Assembly (NCBI GenBank): GCA_937898195.1
Contig: CALEJD010000040.1
Coordinates: forward strand, 24,052 to 88,051
Origin: an uncultured Clostridia bacterium
GTDB taxonomy: Bacteria; Bacillota; Clostridia; Oscillospirales; Acutalibacteraceae
Direction of reading: 5' to 3'
Length of the DNA stretch: 64,000 nt
The position numbers were made by a program, and so were the translations under genes. Positions 22-64,000 of this stretch are shown piece by piece. Numbering within the stretch: position 1 is the stretch's first letter; each line of letters opens with the position of its first letter. The notes beneath the pieces are model-generated. The model had not been told where the DNA came from and did no database searches. It saw only the letters and a program-made list of their open reading frames with translations.

Positions 22-3000
22 ATGGTTCCTATGCTTGGTGCACTTGGTGCCGCCGCCGCTGTTGTTGGTTATGGTGTTTACGAAGCATATAAGTCTACTC
101 ATAAATATAGATTAGAAGTTGACAATTTAGAAGCGTCTAATAAAAAGTCTATTACCACAATTAACGAAAACGCTGAAGAAGCGAAAAGGCTTACAGAGAG
201 GATTGACGAACTTTCCAAAGTAGAAAATAAGACCAATCGTGAAAAAGCGTTGATGGCGGCTTACGTTGAGCACTTGAATGAACTTTATCCAGACCTAAAT
301 CTGCAATATGATAAAGAGAAGGATAAATTGAATCAGACAACTGATTCAATTTATAAATACATCGAAGCCAAGAAAGAAGAAGCAAAGGCGGCGGCGTATG
401 AAAAGAACTTTGAGAAAGCCTTAAACAAACAAATTAAACTGGAAGGCAAGCGAGCAGACGCACAGAAAGAATTAGACCGAGCGCAAAAGCAATATAATAA
501 AGAAGTCGAAAGTGGCTATGTTAACGACATGACCATCAAAAGACTACAAAAGGCTAAAGCGGAAGTTAAAGACTTAAACGTCGCATATGCTGAAATTACC
601 AAGGAAGTTACAAAACAAAGTAACAACATGGTAAAAAATTCAGACGCTTGGAAGGACTTGAAGAAAAAGGCTGACGAAGCGGGCGTTAGTATGTCTAAAG
701 GGCTTAAAGACGCTATTAATGAGGGTGTATACGCCATTCCAGAGTCACTAAAAGACTTAAAAAGTTTAATTTCTTTTGACGATATTGCCCAAGGATTAAG
801 TCTGTCTTCCGATGGTAGGGAACTTGTCGAGTCTTTACAACAAGGCATGCGTGAGGGTCATTTAGATATTAATGATGCATTGAACATTGCTACGCAAATG
901 GATGAAATGCGTGGCAAACTCAATTCAGAAGGTAGTGCCGCCGTTGCCGACCTTGCACAACAATTTTCTTCTGGTGAAATTGATTTTTCTGAATTCCAAA
1001 AGAAACTTCAGAGCGTCTTATCTAATGAAGATTACGAGACTAAATATCGTGTAGATGCAGAAGTTAATGACGAAGAAGTTGAAAATGCTAAAAGCGAAAA
1101 TAAGGAGCCAGTAAGTTATACTGCAACTGGTAAGGGCGACAATTCTGACGTAAAGAAAAAAAAGACTGACGATAAAAAACCAGTAAACTATAAAGCAACT
1201 GGTAAGGGCGATAATGAGGATGTAAAGAAAAAGAAAAAGGACGACAAGAAACCAGTAACTTATAAAGTTAAAGGGGAAGCAACTGGTGGAAAGTCGAGCA
1301 AGAGTGTTAAGGCTACCGCAGATACATCTGGAGCCACAAGCAAGATATCTGGCTTATCAAAATTGCTTTCTGGATTAAAGAATAAAGCCGTTAGTATCAA
1401 AGCAAATGTTTCTGGTAAAGGTAACGTATCTTCTCTTAAATCTGACATAAAGAATTTACCAAGTAGCAAAACTGTCAATATTTATGTTAAAAAACATGGT
1501 AGTGCAAACATCCCCGGTCAAGCGTCTGGCACTAAAAACGCCCCTGCTGGTTTATCCGAAGTTAACGAGGAAGGATTTGAGTTTATTCGTGATGCCAAAA
1601 CTGGCAAACTGCGTATTGCTGATGGCGGTAAGCGTACAATCACTTATCTGAATAAGGGTGACATCGTTTATACACATAAAGAATCGCAGAAGATGCTTGA
1701 AAGCGAAGGCGATGTTATCATCCCCCAACACAAGTCTGGTACCAAGAAAAAGCAAAAGGCCTACGACAAGGCATATAAAAATATAAGTAATGCACATGAG
1801 CGCAAAATGAAGGAACTTGAGTACGCCGCACAACGTGACCATTGGAGTGATGTAAAACTTGCCCAAGCGAAGAAGGCGCAATTAGATGCAACCAACAAGC
1901 AGATTGCCGCTCTGAATAGTAAATACGGTAAAAAAATCACCAAGCAATCTGCAATGGACACACTTGATGCCGAGTTTGATATCAAGAAGGCTCAACTTGA
2001 AGCCGAACACGATGCGCAGACACAGGCTGTCGAAAGCGCAATTAGCGGGCAACTTGGATACACCAAGGATTTATCAACCGTTGTTCGTCAGATTAATAGC
2101 AGTTCAAGGTTAAGCGCAGAAGAGAAGCAGAAATATCTCAAGGAAGCGTATAAGGAAAATGTTGAATATCTGCAAAAGTTATTTGACAAGAACAAGAAGA
2201 CATATGATGAAATGGCGGGCACCCTAAAGAGTTACTATGACCAAGGGATGATTACTGCCAAGGAGTATTATGACTATCTTGATGACCTTGCGGAAAAACA
2301 GTTAGATAAGGAAAAAGATAGGATATCTAAACTGAACGAAGTAAAGGAGAACGAATACGACCTTGCAAAAGCATATGTGCAATATCAGATTGACAAATTG
2401 GAAGAACAGAATGATTTGATTGAGAAACAGGCTGACTTGGAAAAGGCTCGCACACAGCGTGTTAAAGTGTATCGCCAAGGTGTCGGGTTTGTTTATGAAC
2501 AAGACACCGAAGCCATTCGTGAAGCGGAGAAGGCAATTGACGATTTGTCTGACTCCCCCGAACTAAAGAAGTGGAAGGATATTCTTGAGTTGTTTGGGGA
2601 TATGGAAGCGTTGGCTGACATCAAGGAACTTGAGAATAAACTTGGTAAGACTTCTGGCGAATTATTCGGTGGCATGGGCACAGATTTAGCACAATGGGAG
2701 ACGTTTATACGCTCCAACCTTGCAACCACACTTGGATATAGCAGTCTACTTGACGCTATGGACGAGTTAGAAGGACACGACGCTATTGTTGGCTGGCTAC
2801 AAGGTGTTGGCGAAACAGTATCCGAATCCCAAATCCAGCAAGCCATAGACCGTAATCGTTTTGCGTCTGGCACACTATCTGCACCAGCAGGGTTTGCCAG
2901 AGTAGCGGAAAACGGTTATGAGATTGCGCTTCTTGGTAAAGGCGATGCGGTGATGCCGCACAATGTGTCGGAGAACTTAATGCAGTGGGGACGGTATAAT

Positions 3001-3156
3001 CCTGTGGAAGTTATGCAGGGCGGCGTTGGCGGCACTGTTGAAAACTTCCATTTTGATAGTCTGGTTCTGCCGAATGTTACCGATGCAAACGGCTTCATGC
3101 GTGAATTACAGAATTTGCCTAACAGGGCACTACAATATAGTAGGAGCAGGGGGTAG
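22..3156 (+). CDS. tail tape measure protein (frame open to nt 1, probably 5' truncated by the window)
   Basis: 1044-aa ORF with long K/E/A/Q coiled-coil segments and internal 24-aa tandem repeats; followed by tail and fibre genes; no in-frame stop upstream of nt 22. Confidence 0.8.
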   Translation: MVPMLGALGAAAAVVGYGVYEAYKSTHKYRLEVDNLEASNKKSITTINENAEEAKRLTERIDELSKVENKTNREKALMAAYVEHLNELYPDLNLQYDKEKDKLNQTTDSIYKYIEAKKEEAKAAAYEKNFEKALNKQIKLEGKRADAQKELDRAQKQYNKEVESGYVNDMTIKRLQKAKAEVKDLNVAYAEITKEVTKQSNNMVKNSDAWKDLKKKADEAGVSMSKGLKDAINEGVYAIPESLKDLKSLISFDDIAQGLSLSSDGRELVESLQQGMREGHLDINDALNIATQMDEMRGKLNSEGSAAVADLAQQFSSGEIDFSEFQKKLQSVLSNEDYETKYRVDAEVNDEEVENAKSENKEPVSYTATGKGDNSDVKKKKTDDKKPVNYKATGKGDNEDVKKKKKDDKKPVTYKVKGEATGGKSSKSVKATADTSGATSKISGLSKLLSGLKNKAVSIKANVSGKGNVSSLKSDIKNLPSSKTVNIYVKKHGSANIPGQASGTKNAPAGLSEVNEEGFEFIRDAKTGKLRIADGGKRTITYLNKGDIVYTHKESQKMLESEGDVIIPQHKSGTKKKQKAYDKAYKNISNAHERKMKELEYAAQRDHWSDVKLAQAKKAQLDATNKQIAALNSKYGKKITKQSAMDTLDAEFDIKKAQLEAEHDAQTQAVESAISGQLGYTKDLSTVVRQINSSSRLSAEEKQKYLKEAYKENVEYLQKLFDKNKKTYDEMAGTLKSYYDQGMITAKEYYDYLDDLAEKQLDKEKDRISKLNEVKENEYDLAKAYVQYQIDKLEEQNDLIEKQADLEKARTQRVKVYRQGVGFVYEQDTEAIREAEKAIDDLSDSPELKKWKDILELFGDMEALADIKELENKLGKTSGELFGGMGTDLAQWETFIRSNLATTLGYSSLLDAMDELEGHDAIVGWLQGVGETVSESQIQQAIDRNRFASGTLSAPAGFARVAENGYEIALLGKGDAVMPHNVSENLMQWGRYNPVEVMQGGVGGTVENFHFDSLVLPNVTDANGFMRELQNLPNRALQYSRSRG
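1108..1290 (+). repeat. 72-bp (24-aa) tandem repeat inside the tape measure gene, about 2.5 copies
   Basis: Units start at 1108, 1180 and 1252; peptide PVxYxATGKGDNxDVKKKKxDDKK. Confidence 0.8.
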
Positions 3157-3202
3157 CAATATCCCCCTACTCCATTTTACATAATGGAAGGATGGTGATT
3201 AG

Positions 3203-3997
3203 ATGGGTGTTGCTAAAGACATACAGACCGCCATACGAACAATTACAGAACAGGCTATAACAGACGCTCCGTTTGATAAAACAAGAAGGGGCGTGGTAAG
3301 GGGAATAAACGAAGATAATAATACATATACTGTTCATGTAGATGGAATGACTTACGATGGAGTAAAGTCTACTAACGGTTCTGCCGTTCATATTGGTGAT
3401 GTTGTGGATGTGACTTATCCAACTAATAATACGTCTCAAATGGTGATTAGTGGTATCACCGATATGACACAAAGTGAGATTGACGACTTTGTACAGTCGC
3501 TTGGATTGCATGGACGGTCAATATGTCCATATGATGTTGGCGATATTTACGAAACGACTAACTCCGCAAACCCAAGCACAAAATGGGATGGCACGACTTG
3601 GAATCTGGTAAGTGAAGCCGCTGATTATATTGTTGAAGAAGGCGCAAGTGGTATTTGGACGTATCGTAAATGGGCAAGTGGCATTGCTGAATGTTGGGGG
3701 ACATATTTTGTTGCTTCTTCGACATACGCCAACGGCGGGTCGAAATCAATATCACAAACTCTACCAATAACTTTTTCGGACATACCGAGTGTTGTGACAA
3801 GCGGAAGTATCACAGGCACCACCAACTCTGGCACAAGATATACTCGTGGTAACAATAGCACCACAATCGAAACGTATTTAAATAACATGTCTGGTGGTTC
3901 TGTAACAAATACCGGATATGTTTACTTTTATGTGGTTGGTATATGGAAAACCAGAACAACTCCGCAAACGATTTATAAGTGGCGCAGAGTAAGTTAG
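3203..3997 (+). CDS. tail/baseplate protein with an N-terminal OB-fold-like segment and a C-terminal fibre-tip module
   Basis: SD GGTGA 4 nt upstream; N-terminus GVVRGI..HIGDVVDVTYP..VISG resembles gpV/gp5-type spike OB folds; C-terminal PYDVGDIYETTNSANPSTKWDGTTW motif shared with the 4009 and 6456 genes. Confidence 0.6.
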   Translation: MGVAKDIQTAIRTITEQAITDAPFDKTRRGVVRGINEDNNTYTVHVDGMTYDGVKSTNGSAVHIGDVVDVTYPTNNTSQMVISGITDMTQSEIDDFVQSLGLHGRSICPYDVGDIYETTNSANPSTKWDGTTWNLVSEAADYIVEEGASGIWTYRKWASGIAECWGTYFVASSTYANGGSKSISQTLPITFSDIPSVVTSGSITGTTNSGTRYTRGNNSTTIETYLNNMSGGSVTNTGYVYFYVVGIWKTRTTPQTIYKWRRVS

Positions 3998-46793: not shown

Positions 46794-47637
46794 TATCTTT
46801 TATTTTACTCATGGAATCACCATTATTTACATATATTTCCACGGCGTAGTCTTGGATGTTTTGGAACGCAGTGGCATCATACGTTAACCTACCGTGTACT
46901 TTCCATTTGGGGTCGCCCCGCAGAAGCATCCGCTCTTCTCTCACATCTTCATCTGCATCAATGTAAATTACCATAGGAATTTTCTTCCCATCATAATGTT
47001 TGAGCAGATACTCCACTCCATCAACATCAATGACATACAAATCTGCTTCGTCAATCTGTTCTCTGGTTGCTCCATATAATTCGCCGTTGTAATTGGTAAC
47101 AGCACACATGTTTTCCAATTCATTAAATTTCTTCTCTGAAACAAAGATGTGCGCATCGTCAAACACATTGCGTCTTTGTCTTGTGGTGTATGATTTGACT
47201 TCCTTCAACCCATAGGTTTCTCGCATGTATCTGCACAACATAGATTTGCCGCTCCCAGATTTACCTACGATTAAAATAATATAATCACTCATTGTTCTTT
47301 TCGTCCCTAATTTCTTTTGATACTCTTTTTCCTTTTCTAATGAAGCAATCTCTTTCTTTCTTGATAACAACACACGGATACTTTCGTCTTGTAAGTATCC
47401 ATACACTTTTCTTAATGGGTAGCCGTGCTTGAGCATATCTTTCGCTTTGAATTCTACAAACATTGGCACGTTGCTCAAATCACAATACCTTGATACTTTA
47501 AGACAATTATTTTCTAATTCTTTTTTCTTCCTACGTTTTGCTATCCAATCTTGAAGTTGAATGAATCCAAATGCCATGGTGCCAAATGTGACGATAATCG
47601 CAACACATAGCAACAAAATTGTTGTAAACTTAACCAT
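46750..47637 (-). CDS. guanylate-kinase-like nucleotide kinase with an N-terminal transmembrane anchor
   Basis: TM segment FTTILLLCVAIIVTFGTMAFGFI; P-loop GKSGSGKS followed by SYTTRQRR. Confidence 0.6.
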   Translation of the reverse strand: MVKFTTILLLCVAIIVTFGTMAFGFIQLQDWIAKRRKKKELENNCLKVSRYCDLSNVPMFVEFKAKDMLKHGYPLRKVYGYLQDESIRVLLSRKKEIASLEKEKEYQKKLGTKRTMSDYIILIVGKSGSGKSMLCRYMRETYGLKEVKSYTTRQRRNVFDDAHIFVSEKKFNELENMCAVTNYNGELYGATREQIDEADLYVIDVDGVEYLLKHYDGKKIPMVIYIDADEDVREERMLLRGDPKWKVHGRLTYDATAFQNIQDYAVEIYVNNGDSMSKIKDIAREIYGKYFKKEE

Positions 47638-48467
47638 CAGAACACCTCAATATCCATCGTGTCTCTAACTACCTTCTGTTCATTCCTAATCTTGGCGTAA
47701 CGTGTAGTAACACTGATATCGCTATGCCCCATACATAATTGAATTCTTTCAAGTGGCACATTGTGGTCAAGCATGGACGTTGCCCACAGATGTCTAAAGG
47801 AATGGTTGTGAACATTCTTATCAACTCCAGCCTTTTTAGCGGCGAGTTTAAGAGACTTATTAATCCCTTCCTTCGTCATCGGTGTGCCATTATTACTAAC
47901 AAATAAGTTGTCGATGCAATTATTGCGGATGGTCATATAATGGTTAATATACTCCATGGTCTTGTCATTAATATGTACCATCCTGCGCTTGCCACCCTTG
48001 CCAAGAATATTTACATCATTACCATTAAAGTCATCAACCTTTATGCTAATCAGTTCAGATACACGCATACCAGTAGAAGCCAAGGTTGCCATGATTGCCT
48101 TGGTTCTAACACCATTAGCCGTACACCCTACAGCATTAAGCATCATGTTTACGTCTTCCGATGTTAGCGTTGGCTCTACTTTGTTGGTAATGCGTGGGGG
48201 TTTTAGTTTCTTGGTGGGATTGGATTCCAGCACATCAATGTCAAAAAGAAAATCATAGTATCTTTTCACAGACCCTATACGCCTTGCGATGGTTGCGCTG
48301 GACAGACCTTCGTTGGTCATACAGTTCTTCCACTCAAGCAGGTCTGCGAGTGTGATTTCTTCTTCTGGTTTGTTGACATAGTTAAGCATAGATGTGATGT
48401 CTGCGCCATAACTTGCCTTCGTATTCTCATTATTGAATGTTCCAAGATAAAGATTTAATTTATTCAT
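47637..48467 (-). CDS. tyrosine recombinase (XerC/D / phage integrase family)
   Basis: R in GMRVSEL, HSFRHLW, GHSDISVTTRYAK (R-H-R-H/Y catalytic pattern). Confidence 0.8.
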   Translation of the reverse strand: MNKLNLYLGTFNNENTKASYGADITSMLNYVNKPEEEITLADLLEWKNCMTNEGLSSATIARRIGSVKRYYDFLFDIDVLESNPTKKLKPPRITNKVEPTLTSEDVNMMLNAVGCTANGVRTKAIMATLASTGMRVSELISIKVDDFNGNDVNILGKGGKRRMVHINDKTMEYINHYMTIRNNCIDNLFVSNNGTPMTKEGINKSLKLAAKKAGVDKNVHNHSFRHLWATSMLDHNVPLERIQLCMGHSDISVTTRYAKIRNEQKVVRDTMDIEVF

Positions 48468-53855: not shown

Positions 53856-54121
53856 AAAAAGGGGAAGTGTGAAGTGTAAAAAAAAAAAAAAAAACGAATG
53901 GGAAACGATGGTATTTCTTATTCAAGATGCACGATTCTGTACAATATGCCCATCAGACGCTCTATTTTACGTTTTGGCGGGATTTATAATGTAAAGGATG
54001 TTTATATTGACTACCTATATAAAAGTCCATTAGAACGTAAATTAGGGCTTCCATATATTTCCAATTCAACAGAATCGGGACGCATGCTTTAATGCTTTAG
54101 TGTGATAAAGTGAATGTGGAT

Positions 54122-54158
54122 AAAAAAATGATGGTCTGTGTTAACCATCATTTTTTTT
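54122..54158. terminator. bidirectional rho-independent terminator
   Basis: A7-ATGATGGT-ctgtgtta-ACCATCAT-T8. Confidence 0.75.
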
Positions 54159-54163
54159 CTGTT

Positions 54164-54352
54164 TTATCTTTTGAGATTGTATTTTAACACCAAATCTTCG
54201 ATGTCCTCTTCTACCTCCATTCTGTTATCCGCACTTGACCAAAACTCATCATCTACATACGTTTCGTAGTGTTCCATTACTTTTCTAACCTCAATATGAT
54301 AAGCGAGCATTCTGTCATCGTACATTGTCATTCTATCTACTACGTTTTTCAT
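54164..54352 (-). CDS. 62-aa acidic early protein
   Basis: SD AGGAGGT; own promoter and terminator. Confidence 0.7.
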   Translation of the reverse strand: MKNVVDRMTMYDDRMLAYHIEVRKVMEHYETYVDDEFWSSADNRMEVEEDIEDLVLKYNLKR

Positions 54353-54393
54353 CTTATACCTCCTGTATGTTCTGATGTCTTTAACTTGATTAC

Positions 54394-54422
54394 ACTATAC
54401 CATACCATCGGTATGTTGTCAA
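54394..54422 (-). promoter_or_regulatory. early consensus promoter
   Basis: TTGACA-17 nt-TATAGT with TGG. Confidence 0.7.
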
Positions 54423-54737
54423 GTATTTTTTTTATAAATTTTTCTGCAAAATATTTTGCACCATAATTGCCATGTTTACATAGAACATCGTACACAAAAT
54501 ACTTACTACCATTTCTTTCCAATAAATCGGTAAATCGAAAAATAATAGCTTATAGGCATATGCTTCTGTTTTTCCTATCGTTTGAAATAGATTGTATAAG
54601 TACAAAAATTTCATCGAGAACAGGGGAAATCGTCGATTTAAGCGATTTTTTAAAAGAAAAGGTATTTTAGTACGCCAAACCCCCGAAACCCCCAAAACTT
54701 TAGCACGTTAAAACTTTAATGTGATAAAGTTTTGGCA

Positions 54738-54768
54738 ATAAAAAAATCGGATTAATACATCCGATTTT
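54738..54768 (-). terminator. rho-independent terminator (leftward)
   Basis: AAATCGGAT-taataca-ATCCGATTT followed by T7 on the minus strand. Confidence 0.65.
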
Positions 54769-54953
54769 CCATAATAAATATAATTCTATCCGCTAATTCA
54801 TTCATCTGTTTTTCTGTAATATGCTTCCATTTATAGCACCAATCAATTCTATTGCATATCCAATCAATGCTTTTGGTTTTGTAGTTGTATACACAATTTT
54901 ATTACTTTATCACTTTAACGCACTAAAGTTAAGGGGTAAAAATAAAAGAACAT

Positions 54954-56156: not shown

Positions 56157-56185
56157 ATATTATCATACATTGGTTTATTTGTCAA
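56157..56185 (-). promoter_or_regulatory. early consensus promoter
   Basis: TTGACA-17 nt-TAATAT. Confidence 0.65.
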
Positions 56186-56230
56186 GTAAAATGTGCAAAA
56201 TATTTTTATAAATATTTTTCTAAAAACTAC

Positions 56231-56259
56231 TTGACAAACGTTGAAAAATATGTTAATCT
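56231..56259 (+). promoter_or_regulatory. rightward promoter, divergent from 56157..56185
   Basis: TTGACA-17 nt-TAATCT; followed by GGGGAAGTCTAAGTCTAA and an A run. Confidence 0.5.
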
Positions 56260-56295: not shown

Positions 56296-56324
56296 AAAAA
56301 AAACGGTCTGAATTTTCAGACCGT
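56296..56324 (-). terminator. rho-independent terminator (leftward)
   Basis: ACGGTCTG-aattttc-CAGACCGT followed by T8 on the minus strand. Confidence 0.7.
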
Positions 56325-56332
56325 TCCTATAT

Positions 56333-57067: not shown

Positions 57068-57295
57068 TTAATAATAATTTTTTGGTGCGTTATCAATTTC
57101 TCTGCGAGTAAATCCCATTTCCAAAAGTTTCTTAATCATGGTTTCTTTTTTAACATACCACCTTAATTCAATATCATGGTATGTAGAATTATATACTTGA
57201 TTTGACGGTCTTGTGTATGAATTCATTTTATATAATTCTAATTCATAACTATTATTCATTGATTTTAATTTATATCCATAATATGTTCTTCTCAT
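57068..57295 (-). CDS. 75-aa early protein
   Basis: ATG 57295 lies 6 nt after GAGGTG. Confidence 0.6.
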   Translation of the reverse strand: MRRTYYGYKLKSMNNSYELELYKMNSYTRPSNQVYNSTYHDIELRWYVKKETMIKKLLEMGFTRREIDNAPKNYY

Positions 57296-57308
57296 TTTAT
57301 GCACCTCA

Positions 57309-57592: not shown

Positions 57593-57841
57593 TCAATCCC
57601 ATCCTAACATTTCATATATTTCATCCATGTTAAATGGTTTACTATTTACATCGTGCTTCGGTGTATCTAATATCTTGTCAATTCTCGCTTGTTCTGTTTT
57701 GTGTTGCCATAACAATGGTTCGTTACCTTTTACCATATTTTCTGTGACTGTATATCTTTTTCCCCTATATTCATATTCAAGATATACGGTTTCCCTGTCG
57801 TATCCTGTGCCATACCATTTATCAATAAATTTTGCCTTCAT
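57593..57841 (-). CDS. 82-aa early protein
   Basis: SD GGGAGGT. Confidence 0.65.
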   Translation of the reverse strand: MKAKFIDKWYGTGYDRETVYLEYEYRGKRYTVTENMVKGNEPLLWQHKTEQARIDKILDTPKHDVNSKPFNMDEIYEMLGWD

Positions 57842-57869
57842 TCTTTCAACCTCCCTTATTTACAATACC

Positions 57870-57898
57870 ACTATACCATATTTCAATCCCATTGTCAA
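57870..57898 (-). promoter_or_regulatory. early consensus promoter
   Basis: TTGACA-17 nt-TATAGT with TGG. Confidence 0.7.
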
Positions 57899-58290
57899 CA
57901 ACTTTTTTTCAACAAAATAAAATAAAAAAAACTACCATTTTTTCAATGTTTTTTACCACTATTTTATAAAATTACGTTCGGCAAATCGCAAATTAGAGCC
58001 TCGCAAAAATCAAAAGAATGTTGGAATTTCAACGATTATAGCCATTCTTTAGCACTTTAGTGTAATTTTGCCATATAGTTATACCTTGAATTTATGTATT
58101 TTTATGCAAATTTCATACATAAATCGTTATAAATGTTGAAATTGCAAGGGTTTCGACGTTTTTACCTATCGTACAACAAGCCTAAAATAAGCCTAAAATC
58201 GTCGATTTAAGCGTTTTTCCCAAAATATGGTATGAATACTCATGTATATTATACATAAGGGTTGGCACGATACTTGCATAGCCAAATTTG

Positions 58291-58546
58291 CTTTAATGCT
58301 TTAGAATACAAAAGTAAAATTTTACTTTTGTACTTTATAATTTGAATACTTTAATTTGCTAAAGTGTAACATTATAATCCACTTTTATGTTGTAAAGCAT
58401 TAAAGCATTATCGCTTTAATATGGTAAAGTTATAAAATATTAACGTCTTAATACATTAAAATATCATTGCTTTAATATGGTAAAGTCTTGTGTATTGAAT
58501 ATTGTATACACATTTTTAGCACATTAATACTTTAATGCGTTAAAGT
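58291..58546. repeat. gene-free cluster of ACTTTA-N6-TAAAGT palindromes, a 22-bp perfect palindrome and a TGTATACA palindrome
   Basis: Sites at 58348, 58413, 58469 and 58529; CAAAAGTAAAATTTTACTTTTG at 58309-58330; TGTATACA at 58503-58510. Confidence 0.85.
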
Positions 58547-58556
58547 TTTTGAACAT

Positions 58557-58594
58557 GAAAAAAGGTTACCAATATTTTACACGGTAACCTTTTC
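58557..58594 (-). terminator. rho-independent terminator (leftward)
   Basis: AAAGGTTACC-12 nt-GGTAACCTTT followed by a T run on the minus strand. Confidence 0.7.
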
Positions 58595-58629
58595 CAATTT
58601 ATTTATAGGAGGTTTTAGAGAATTTCTGA

Positions 58630-59193
58630 TTAATAATCATATTGTACTATTCTACCATCCCAAAGTTCATAATAGTAACCATCTTCAATAATCGCTTCGC
58701 CAAGTCCTTCATAATCAATATAATTTGTTAACCAAGATTCAATATTACAACATTCATCAACATAATTTTCTGCAACGTCATACGCATCATTCCATACATA
58801 CGATATAATACTCATATCAAAATAATCATTGTTGTAATTGTTAAGCACTTCTTCAACATCTTCTTCGTTAAGTGCGTATTCATCATGCATCTTTTCAATT
58901 TCAGATTCACGCACATATGATTCAAATTCTTCATGTTCACCATTTGCAATCATATCAGCAACATCGCTAAACGTATCATCGCCATCAGTATTTTTCATAC
59001 GATTAAACACATCTTTCGTAACCCATGTTTCAACATCATCAAAATCTTCATCAATACGCACACTACAACGTGCATTTGATACAATAGGTTTACCACTATA
59101 ATCTAAATGAATTATGCCATCACTATTAAGTTCAATATATCTGCATCCATCGCATTCATCTTTAATTCTATAAAGGATAATGTACTTACTCAT
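58630..59193 (-). CDS. ardA: ArdA-like anti-restriction protein (acidic DNA-mimic family)
   Basis: C-terminus YDVAENYVDE...LTNYIDYEGLGEAIIEDGYYYELWDGRIVQY parallels Tn916 Orf18 ArdA YDVARYYIEE...LQNYIDYQAYGRDLDLSGTF...GIFEI (recalled from memory); very acidic. Confidence 0.55.
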   Translation of the reverse strand: MSKYIILYRIKDECDGCRYIELNSDGIIHLDYSGKPIVSNARCSVRIDEDFDDVETWVTKDVFNRMKNTDGDDTFSDVADMIANGEHEEFESYVRESEIEKMHDEYALNEEDVEEVLNNYNNDYFDMSIISYVWNDAYDVAENYVDECCNIESWLTNYIDYEGLGEAIIEDGYYYELWDGRIVQYDY

Positions 59194-59207
59194 ATTTATA
59201 CCTCCAA

Positions 59208-59962: not shown

Positions 59963-60109
59963 TTATTTATTTCCTAACTTTATTCTTATAATTTTATGCT
60001 CCAAAATCTTTAGTTCATCTTTTTGATGGTTATATTCCATTTCAATTCTTTTGCCTTGCTTTAATTTCTGTGTAATTACCTCTAATGCTTCCTTATTAAT
60101 ATATTCCAT
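59963..60109 (-). CDS. 48-aa early protein
   Basis: SD GGGAGGT 5 nt upstream. Confidence 0.55.
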   Translation of the reverse strand: MEYINKEALEVITQKLKQGKRIEMEYNHQKDELKILEHKIIRIKLGNK

Positions 60110-62085: not shown

Positions 62086-62931
62086 TACCTTTTTTTATTT
62101 TGTTTTATTTTTTTTATCATGCGCATGTTATATATAATGTATGCTTTTGATTATAAGTATATTGTTGTTGTTATTTTTACATACAATATTTTTCATATCA
62201 CCTTATAACGCTTTAATTTGCGTTTTAAGCGATTTTTTATATTGAATGATAAATTACCTTACATTGATACAAAATGCTCTTAAAACTTAAAATAAGCACA
62301 TTAAACACTCGTTTTTAGGGATAATCATATAACATCATGTATTATTTTTCTACCATATTATTATATGTGATTTTGATATAAAAAAAATAATCAATTTGTT
62401 ATCAAAATATTACTAATTTGTTTATGAAAAAATAAACAAACATGCTTTAAGAATAAAGAAAAAGATTTTAATGATTTAATACTTTAATTAATTAAAGTAA
62501 AAAAAATGAAACAATACGCTTTAAGAATAAGAAAATAAAATCAATTTTACTTTTTTTCAATTTAACACTTTAATCAATTAAAGTGTTATCAAAAAAAAAC
62601 ATTATCAAAATCAAAATTCAAAATTAAAAGAATTTTTAAGAATAAAAAAATCAAAAAAATTTTCATTTTTTTTTCAAAAATCTCTGTGGCATATATATAT
62701 GGGGAAATATAAAAAACGCACTTTACCCTCCGCAAGCGAGTCCCCCTCTGCTTTTTCACATTAAAGTAATGAATCGAATCAAATTTTAACGCTTTAACGC
62801 TTTATCGCTTTAATTGAATAAAGTGCATATTCATTCATTCCAAATTTTTCCATTTTTGGCAATTTTTCCATTTCTATTTTCTTCCATAAACAAGCGTTTG
62901 CGCTCGCCTGTTCTGTCAGATTTTGGAAGTG

Positions 62932-62965
62932 AACAATTGTTTTTATCCATATAAAAACAATTGTT
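62932..62965. repeat. perfect 15-bp-stem hairpin / cruciform
   Basis: AACAATTGTTTTTAT-ccat-ATAAAAACAATTGTT. Confidence 0.9.
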
Positions 62966-62968
62966 TGT

Positions 62969-62977
62969 TGTGGATAA
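62969..62977. promoter_or_regulatory. perfect DnaA-box 9-mer
   Basis: TGTGGATAA (reverse complement TTATCCACA), 3 nt from the 15-bp hairpin. Confidence 0.4.
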
Positions 62978-64000
62978 CCCACGTTATCATTCTACCACAA
63001 ATTAGTATTAAATACAATGCAAAAATTTTTGCATTTCATACGCTAATACTTTAATGTATGAAAGTTATTTTTATAGTATCGTGCAATTGTATATTGTATA
63101 CACAATTTTAATACTTTAATGCAATAAAGTGCCTCTGTCAGAAACCTTTACAATTTAATACTTTAATTTAATAAAGTATGTATATTGTATACATCTTTTA
63201 ATACTTTATAACTTTAATTGATTAAAGTATTAAAGTATACAATTTTGCATACTGTATACAATATTTTATTGCTTTAATTGAATAAAGTGTTAATGTGTTA
63301 AAATATATATTTGCATATTGTATACAATAGTTTAATGATTTATCATTTTAATATTTTAACTTGCTAAAGTATTTTATACGTTATAACTTTATTGAATTAA
63401 AGTATTAAATTGTTAATATGGTAATATTTTAATGTGTTAAAGTTTTGTATACAAAACACACAAAAATACATTGATTTTTTTATGGTCTGAAATTTATTTT
63501 TTGTATCGGGAAATCGAAAAATAAAGCCTCAAAAAATCTTAAAAAATCGCTTAATTGCAAGGGTTTGAGGCGATTTTTTAACGCTTTAGCGTATTTTTGT
63601 CATGTAGTTATACCTTGAAATTATAAAAATTTTTTTGTTTTTGCACACAAAAACGCTCGAAAGCCTTGTACCGCAAGGGTTTGCCGACTTTTGATTTTGA
63701 AAAATTAGCGCAAAATGACGCCTTATTTTTTGATTTCCCGGTTTTTTGTGTGTTGTGGTCTGATTTTATTGTGTGAAAACACAATAATGATTGGTATAAC
63801 TTTTGCATAGGATAATTTTTGCTTTAGCATATTAAAACTTTAATGCGTTAAAGTAAGAATCACGTACACTTTAGCACGTTAAAATTTTAATGTATTAAAA
63901 TTTCTTGACCAAAAAAATAGTAAAAAATGGTAAAATTTTGGCATAAATTTTGCTACATTATATATAAAAAAGGCACTAAAAAATAATTTCAAAACATGCA

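Follow-up and report, generated by a model that had tools for sequence, protein, structure and literature searches.

The stretch of DNA analyzed here, referred to as the window, comprises 64,000 nucleotides (nt) and corresponds to positions 24052-88051 of the longest contig (106,350 bp) in a 2.0-Mb metagenome-assembled genome (MAG). The contig encodes a DnaE-type polymerase, a ribonucleotide reductase (RNR), RecJ, DnaB, a primase, RtcB, tail genes and methylases, which is a phage-type content, and it stems from an uncultured gut Clostridia phage of ~100 kb. No match was found for the region among 50,697 deposited phages using megablast and blastn; the contig has no close relative there. The PolA of the source MAG is 96-97% identical to those of Candidatus Fimenecus and Clostridia MAGs from animal guts, and this affinity fits the Firmicutes-type signals seen here, namely TTGACA-17-TATAxT promoters with TG and GGAGG ribosome-binding sites. 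The early region, running from 62 kb down to 53 kb, carries small, mostly acidic orphan genes on the minus strand, which are grouped in many short units with a near-consensus promoter on each. A 788-nt gap between the genes 58630-59193 and 57593-57841 holds the subject of this work, an island of short repeats at 58291-58546. An earlier note on this DNA had described the island as a gene-free, miniature copy of a distal repeat array, inserted among the early genes. It is indeed gene-free, since no open reading frame (ORF) of at least 30 amino acids (AA) lies within 58291-58546. Judged from sequence, the island would be a cis-acting element, neither a gene nor a series of RNA hairpins. The feature is real, conserved and functional-looking, and it appears to belong to a genome-wide system of docking arrays that are unusually coupled to terminators. 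The predicted core is a boundary element that recurs in the clade and consists of an intrinsic terminator, a gap of 10-13 nt, an octamer site and the palindrome TGTATACA.

The features of the locus, of the sister cluster and of the main array are as follows.

58557-58594, minus strand: bidirectional intrinsic terminator that ends the early gene 58630-59193 (187 AA); conserved in all eight aligned islands.
58514-58546, unstranded: terminator-locked site of four octamers, TTTTAGCA CATTAATA CTTTAATG CGTTAAAG; includes site 4 (58529-58546).
58499-58514, unstranded: palindrome ATATTGTATACACATT centered on TGTATACA; invariant in eight genomes.
58390-58485, unstranded: variable, indel-rich core of twelve contiguous octamers in one register; includes sites 2 (58413-58430) and 3 (58469-58486).
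58333-58365, unstranded: four octamers, CTTTATAA TTTGAATA CTTTAATT TGCTAAAG; includes site 1 (58348-58365).
58307-58332, unstranded: perfect 26-bp palindrome TACAAAAGTAAAATTTTACTTTTGTA; a near-palindrome in seven relatives.
58291-58306, plus strand: two direct octamers, CTTTAATG CTTTAGAA; nearly invariant in eight genomes.
58262-58281, plus strand: conserved sigma-54-like box TTGGCACGATACTTGCATAG; its -24 GG / -12 GC spacing fits the consensus.
57978-58165, plus strand: conserved non-coding module, a 120-nt box followed by a hairpin with a plus-strand T-run (58132-58165).
57870-57898, minus strand: strong sigma-A-type promoter TTGACA-17-TATAGT with TG, driving the downstream early operon (gene 57593-57841).
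54084-54929, unstranded: sister cluster with three further terminator-locked sites (54095, 54714 and 54913), the last accompanied by TGTATACA at 54886.
62481-63900, unstranded: main array with nine perfect sites and five TGTATACA, in a 2.4-kb control region that has no genes and separates divergent early operons.

The dyad CTTTA-N6-TAAAG occurs 17 times in the window compared to 0.13 expected, a number reached by none of 100 shuffles. All 17 dyads of the contig (106 kb) are located within 54.1-63.9 kb of the window, and the other 1.9 Mb of the MAG contain five, which is about the number expected by chance. The dyads form three non-coding clusters, at 54.1-54.9 kb, in the island and at 62.5-63.9 kb. 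A single dyad within a gene (59160-59175, codons 7-12 of the 187-AA gene, kept in contig L097) is probably a coding coincidence. Half-sites of the TAAAG type in the same orientation are spaced by 8, 16, 24 or 32 bp and CTTTA to TAAAG pairs by 11, 19 or 27 bp, while the tail-to-tail order has no preferred spacing. Since these spacings follow 8n and 11+8n, the island DNA can be described as a series of 8-bp units, CTTTAnnn or nnnTAAAG, in register. More closely, the units read CTTTAAnn or, inverted, nnTTAAAG, and they are arranged both in direct and in head-to-head order. All six TTAA of the stretch 58390-58485 lie in one phase, which none of 2000 shuffles matches, and shorter octamer runs are found at 58291-58306, 58333-58364 and 58514-58545. 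Aligned as a position matrix, 74 perfect sites of seven genomes yield TTAAyR-CTTTAAT-nn-Rn-TAAAG-Yr-TTAA, a ->-><-<- element of 28-32 bp with conserved arms, a variable center and symmetric flanks.

All elements named in the earlier note were recovered, some in modified form. Its four ACTTTA-N6-TAAAGT sites exist as cores, with CTTTA-N6-TAAAG at 58349-58364, 58414-58429, 58470-58485 and 58530-58545, but the outer bases hold at sites 1 and 4, whereas sites 2 and 3 read GCTTTAATATGGTAAAGT with G instead of A as the first base. The 56-bp direct repeat is real but imperfect, as its 47-nt copies (58384-58430 and 58440-58486) are 79% identical. The 22-bp palindrome at 58309-58330 is contained in the longer perfect one of 26 bp at 58307-58332, and the one TGTATACA palindrome was located at 58503-58510; this motif counts 12 compared to 2 expected. 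The two octamers at 58291-58306 are the left arm of a 27-nt inverted repeat paired with 58381-58407. The terminator reported beside the island (58557-58594) is also present. On the minus, coding strand it consists of a GC-containing hairpin of -15.7 kcal/mol followed by T6 (z -3.75), 35 nt past the stop of 58630-59193, and on the plus strand the hairpin folds at -13 kcal/mol.

In addition to the window, the island is found at the same position in seven related phage contigs (G001, G006, L099, L108, L111, L114 and L116), where the flanking genes differ. The closest of them, the IMG/VR contig G001 (DnaE 79% identical), has the same three clusters, and its intergenic region matches 57849-58632 at 78% despite the missing 187-AA gene and different genes downstream. 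Further holders of the region are a contig of a goat-colon MAG (G006) and the ~100-kb metagenome contigs L098 and L099, and L108, L111, L114 and L116 were reached via a neighboring 113-AA protein. A pattern scan of IMG/VR for two spaced sites returned just a coding tandem repeat (unrelated contigs), and a protein scan with the 187-AA upstream gene returned no relatives. In an eight-way alignment, the left 490 nt (57842-58330) are ~90% conserved, as is the module 57978-58165 among relatives, and the promoter 57870-57898, with 11 of 12 matches, is conserved as well. In the middle (58335-58470), whole units come and go, with five to six perfect sites in L111 and a deletion in G006 and L099. The right part, comprising site 3, TGTATACA, site 4 and the terminator, is conserved again. 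Site 1 is the same in G001 and has decayed without compensation in G006 and L108. L098 retains just the terminator, site 4 and TGTATACA, directly followed by the promoter, and in L100 the island is absent and the promoter directly follows the terminator. Across lineages, an island has between one and six perfect sites, and its non-coding DNA is conserved to the same degree as the best neighboring genes. More distant relatives (DnaE 57-63% identical; three complete genomes and one partial genome) have zero or one dyad and thus no enrichment. The island is therefore better described as an old conserved module, kept in seven relatives with middle units gained and lost, than as a recent insertion. 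From this comparison, sites 1-3 appear as a copy-number-variable extension of the core.

Two observations on gene content and one on a distant relative belong here. The 187-AA gene (58630-59207) is an indel that is absent from G001, and a neighboring 185/186-AA gene of G001 has the same last codons, spacer and terminator. Because this gene ends like the missing one, cassettes seem to be exchanged at gene 3' ends. In L117 (G003:C1), a distant complete relative without the CTTTAA dyad, the region 2500-3300 has a GC content of 16-23% and is packed with unrelated ATATTATA-type 8-mers; it is possibly an equivalent array with another unit.

Site 4 starts 12 nt beyond the T-run in the direction of early transcription, and the same 12-nt lag was observed at 54729, 54110 and 54928, following three different terminators and with no conserved spacer. 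With a simple terminator finder, 26 early-region terminators were counted in nine genomes, and behind 17 of them a site with at most one mismatch lies 10-13 nt past the T-run; the sequences of terminators and spacers differ. Those terminator-locked copies that have TGTATACA carry it at a fixed 27-37 nt from the site, start to start, and in the island it precedes site 4 by 27 nt on the plus strand. For comparison, a perfect site within 200 nt upstream was found for 10 of 94 strong early promoters, and the next promoter may lie as close to a site as 71 nt (L098), at 94-95 nt or as far off as ~650 nt. Because of these two proportions and the variable promoter distance, the element is regarded as coupled to terminators and not to promoters. 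At junctions without a site, a conserved antisense promoter is placed back to back with the sense promoter.

Such back-to-back consensus promoters at 56185-56259 have orthologues in all relatives and take the place of the octamer site there. The antisense one, TTGACAAAyGyTGAAAAATATGTTAATCT, is aimed at the bidirectional terminator 56304-56325, which gives a predicted RNA of ~60 nt. A unit of ~100 nt between two terminators (54780-54885) is 92% identical in G001; given its extended -10 box and the lack of a credible ORF, it might encode a small RNA on the minus strand. A sigma-A promoter composed of the site and TGTATACA was also considered and rejected, as no acceptable -35/-10 pair was seen by eye and none was flagged by a promoter scan.

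The similarity to the distal array at 62481-63900 is significant. The best local alignment score of the island is 62, compared to 32.9 +/- 4.3 (maximum 49) for dinucleotide shuffles, and 45 11-mers are shared while 2.9 are expected. With blastn, 58334-58449 matches 63339-63446 at 68% and 58515-58546 matches 63823-63854 at 94%. However, the similarity is patchy and made up of shared repeat units; the island is not a simple inserted miniature, and its earlier description as a miniature copy is supported in part. Outside the island, the box 57978-58095 matches 63506-63624 at 76% over 120 nt (blastn, E 2e-15), and the order of box, hairpin with T-run, sigma-54-like box and sites is common to 57978-58546 and 63506-63900. 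Based on this order and on the box match, the intergenic module 57978-58546 is interpreted as a paralogue of the control-region right edge (63506-63900). The alignments thus indicate that the collinear paralogue of the whole module is this right edge and not the core array, with which units are shared. The constant part of the module is the terminator-locked site that is found also at 54.1, 54.7 and 54.9 kb.

The non-coding part of this module occurs twice, at 57978-58165 and 63506-63700. Its 120-nt box with TAGTTATACCTTGAA has exactly two copies on the contig and is followed by a hairpin with CAAGGGTTT in the loop or 3' arm and a plus-strand T-run. The module is a candidate for a small RNA gene on the plus strand, which would run antisense to early transcription. 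Another repeated box, AAATCGTCGATTTAAGCG with the 13-bp palindromic core AAATCGnCGATTT, lies at 58196-58218 in the island leader and at 54627-54649 in the 54.1-54.9 kb cluster, with 96% identity between the two and no variation among relatives.

The substitution pattern fits DNA half-sites rather than RNA hairpins. Orthologous sites 1, 3 and 4 of eight genomes differ by 27 arm-pair changes, of which none is compensated and 21 break a pair. As arm changes are never compensated, the sites are regarded as DNA half-sites and not as hairpins. The 26-bp palindrome shows one compensatory double change between the window and six relatives (CA..TG against TG..CA) and therefore may act as a hairpin or cruciform.

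Candidates for a protein that binds the sites were sought by profile searches. Scans of ~150 ORFs with Pfam, PHROG and NCBIfam revealed no helix-turn-helix (HTH) or ribbon-helix-helix (RHH) protein, and among 112 small and ~40 larger ORFs there was no match to RHH, Omega_Repress or ParA, although small RHH proteins can escape profile searches. The scans yielded just two HU/IHF-like proteins, a XerD-like recombinase, zinc ribbons, a MazF-like protein and methylases. The two HU/IHF-like genes stand in tandem at contig positions equivalent to window 78115-78912 (L053:14115-14912) and recall TF1 of phage SPO1, a protein that binds early-promoter regions. The XerD-like tyrosine recombinase (47637-48467, minus strand) has retained the catalytic residues R, K, HxxR, H and Y, as seen in an alignment to XerD. 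Homologues with 38% identity exist in the complete genomes G003 and G004, where the motif is not enriched. It is encoded in a phage with no other sign of lysogeny, and one small ORF is MazF/PemK-like; as far as the sequence goes, both hint at a plasmid-like or resolvase-dependent lifestyle. The 113-AA protein mentioned above is basic and is encoded next to the control region (positions equivalent to window 65245-65586; L053:1245-1586). It has 1508 homologues, of which the best 120 are 71-83% identical, which makes it far more conserved than its neighbors, and it is absent from the distant relatives without motif enrichment. Its AlphaFold model (pLDDT 75.5) gave no fold match with Foldseek (best E 0.2), and sequence searches against the PDB were empty. 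Besides these proteins, a DUF8033 protein (about 64900-65242) and the basic small ORFs 59963-60109 and 57068-57304 are candidate binders.

The grammar of the sites, their conservation, their fixed distance to terminators and the absence of covariation as expected for hairpins are direct observations, and from them we infer that a protein binds, that this binder is encoded by the phage and that it works as a roadblock. Of the explanations considered, the most likely is that the island serves as a docking array for an oligomerizing phage-encoded protein that acts at early operon boundaries, and this is given an even chance of being correct. In the proposed mechanism, the protein would oligomerize along the octamers and thereby occupy the sites, and a second factor may bind TGTATACA. 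Located just past the U-tract, the protein would keep RNA polymerase at the terminator, as its edge 10-13 bp beyond the U-tract would meet the polymerase front while the active site is on the U-tract. Because of this expected encounter, a roadblock-assisted and possibly switchable mode of termination or insulation is proposed. The outcome would be that the insulation between early units is strengthened or switched, that the downstream unit is silenced, or both. Cooperative occupancy would come from the island's additional units and from the large distal array, the latter serving as the main center for loading or occupancy. A more specific version states that octamer sites make intrinsic terminators protein-controlled boundaries, with a protein 10-13 bp past the U-tract deciding between stop and read-through and with larger arrays setting the local protein concentration. 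This version is tentative and rather unlikely. If it is true, large phages of Gram-positive bacteria would possess, in the terminator-locked operator, a general type of regulatory device that has so far gone undescribed.

Several points weigh against the docking-array interpretation. The profile searches returned no HTH or RHH protein, and the recognizable DNA binders, the two HU/IHF-like proteins and the XerD-like recombinase, both have relatives in genomes without the motif. The sites show a consistent polarity, with a stronger left half on the plus strand, and binding by a simple symmetric dimer leaves this unexplained. Neither the main array nor sites 1-3 adjoin terminators, and therefore another role is needed there. 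The roadblock idea is derived from one observation, the spacing. In addition, part of the island may act as a structure, the 26-bp palindrome being the sole hairpin-like sub-element.

Among the alternatives, a structured non-coding RNA gene on the plus strand would be transcribed from the sigma-54-like box (transcription start site near 58290) as far as the bidirectional terminator, with the palindromes forming hairpins in the RNA. The box TTGGCACGATACTTGCATAG fits the -24/-12 consensus and its spacing, is conserved in seven of eight islands (perfect in the window and six relatives) and has a second copy at ~63795-63812 on the plus strand; both boxes point away from the early direction. A 313-nt plus-strand stretch folds at z -6.5, the 26-bp palindrome has its compensatory double change, and other parts of the early region have conserved consensus promoters in antisense orientation. 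On the other hand, the minus strand folds equally well (z -6.0), and both strands fold better than shuffles because any set of palindromes would. Sites 1, 3 and 4 show no compensation, whole units are inserted or deleted, and Rfam 15 gave no match in the window at the gathering score, with just noise at E>1 in 57700-58700. Furthermore, the GG of the box is changed to GA in L108, and the same 19 specified bases occur also in diverse, unrelated bacteria. Sigma54_DBD was found neither in the source MAG (88% complete) nor in the goat MAG, both of which are incomplete, and since the source MAG also lacks rpoB, the absence of rpoN is weak evidence. The sigma-54 reading was set aside given the matches in unrelated bacteria, the two MAGs without rpoN and the fact that PF00158 matches are generic AAA+ proteins. 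An RNA gene is thus considered very unlikely. Another possibility is a secondary replication, partition or packaging site, in which the octamers would be iterons or centromere-like and the island a satellite of an origin or centromere at 62.3-64 kb. The main array lies between divergent operons in a gene-free region of 2.4 kb with 23% GC at the cumulative GC-skew minimum, and the intact XerD-like recombinase and the MazF/PemK-like toxin hint at a plasmid-like lifestyle. Omega-type centromeres share the ->-><-<- grammar, and KorB sites are dispersed at variable promoter distances (PMC11790492). However, no ParA, ParB, ParM, TubZ or Rep initiator was detected in the ORF profile scans, the fixed terminator spacing of 10-13 nt has no obvious role in such a site, and L100 can do without the island while L098 keeps a single site of it, so this explanation is doubtful.

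The sites might also be targets of the XerD-like recombinase, either for cassette exchange or multimer resolution or because the recombinase doubles as a repressor, as MrpR of SPbeta, a repressor with a recombinase fold, does on the dispersed repeat SPBRE (PMC10516654). Their 11-bp inverted arms and 6-bp center correspond to the core geometry of dif/lox-type sites, the recombinase is intact, and the genes flanking the island vary between relatives. Nevertheless, neither the dozens of sites in each genome nor the contiguous runs of octamers are typical of core sites, and the breakpoints in gene content were mapped to gene 3' ends and promoters instead of the sites. The gain and loss of units resembles unequal exchange between direct repeats, the recombinase homologues of G003 and G004 occur in genomes without motif enrichment, and MrpR is catalytically dead whereas the enzyme here is not. 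This leaves the recombinase explanation with a slim chance. Finally, the island could have no function of its own and be a decaying or drifting duplicate of control-region repeats that is carried along with the conserved leader. Its indel-rich middle, the decay of sites in some relatives and the loss of most or all of it in L098 and L100 would be compatible with this. In contrast, perfect sites are maintained or re-created in each lineage, with one to six per island, and site 4, TGTATACA and the terminator spacing are conserved in eight genomes and repeated at other terminators. As non-coding DNA conserved like the best neighboring genes also argues against drift, this explanation is extremely improbable.

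In large uncultured gut Clostridia phages, early regions are crowded with orphan genes. The control DNA described here has a clear conserved grammar, consisting of the 8-bp register, the second palindrome and the fixed terminator distance, which can be used to fish out the regulator. It also makes testable the idea that operon boundaries are set by a protein bound to DNA immediately behind a terminator. If the terminator coupling is functional, it would add a form of temporal control that differs from classical operators overlapping promoters and would offer a compact, portable insulator part for Gram-positive synthetic biology.

Known systems share single aspects of this arrangement. In roadblock termination, a protein is bound to DNA downstream of a T-rich release element; Reb1/TTF-I act on RNA polymerase I in this manner, and CodY and CcpA form roadblocks in Bacillus. 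The likeness consists of a site at a fixed short distance past the release element, here 10-13 nt, and is a pure analogy. The geometry of dif/lox-type core sites is found in TTAAyRCTTTA-N6-TAAAGYrTTAA of the 74-site matrix, whereas dif/lox-type sites number one or a few per replicon; this genome alone counts 17 perfect sites and seven genomes together count 74, with breakpoints elsewhere. The operator OB of KorB is a palindrome of the TTTAGC type. KorB operators on plasmid RK2 are dispersed at very different promoter distances and act over a long range (PMC11790492). In contrast to KorB, which is a ParB/CTP clamp, no ParB-like protein was detected here, and the spacing is TTTA-N5-TAAA in OB but TTTA-N6-TAAA in the island. 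PeSL cassettes of T4-type phages combine a terminator stem-loop with a strong sigma-70-type promoter between small early genes (PMC2839356). Many TTGACA-17-TATAxT promoters and terminators are likewise present here, and gene content is shuffled between relatives, but PeSLs have no separate palindromic or octamer array, whereas here an extra conserved element lies between terminator and promoter.

SPBRE of the Bacillus phage SPbeta is a 15-bp motif in promoter regions that is bound by the repressor MrpR (YopR), which keeps the prophage silent (PMC10516654). Both repeats are short and dispersed in the intergenic early part of a large Gram-positive phage genome, and SPBRE is bound by one phage protein. 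Unlike SPBRE, island-type sites are mostly far from promoters (the 10 of 94 given above), and while MrpR has a recombinase fold without catalytic residues, the phage recombinase here is intact and there is no evidence of lysogeny. MetJ is an oligomerizing small repressor that reads tandem 8-bp metboxes. The omega protein (ParB_pSM) of the inc18 plasmid pSM19035 binds contiguous short repeats, including ->-><-<- arrangements (PMC9499535). The omega arrays differ from the island in their 7-bp unit WATCACW compared to the 8-bp CTTTAAnn; here, moreover, no RHH protein or ParA was found in the ORF scans, and the sites are locked to terminators and not to promoters. Like the omega heptads, which form gapless runs of at least four units, the island has twelve contiguous octamers with spacings of 8n and 11+8n. 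Both systems use gapless short units in direct and head-to-head order, with several arrays per replicon on a Firmicutes element, and the omega arrays are read by a small oligomerizing repressor and centromere binder. By analogy, the grammar of the island would resemble that read by ribbon-helix-helix proteins such as omega of pSM19035 or MetJ.

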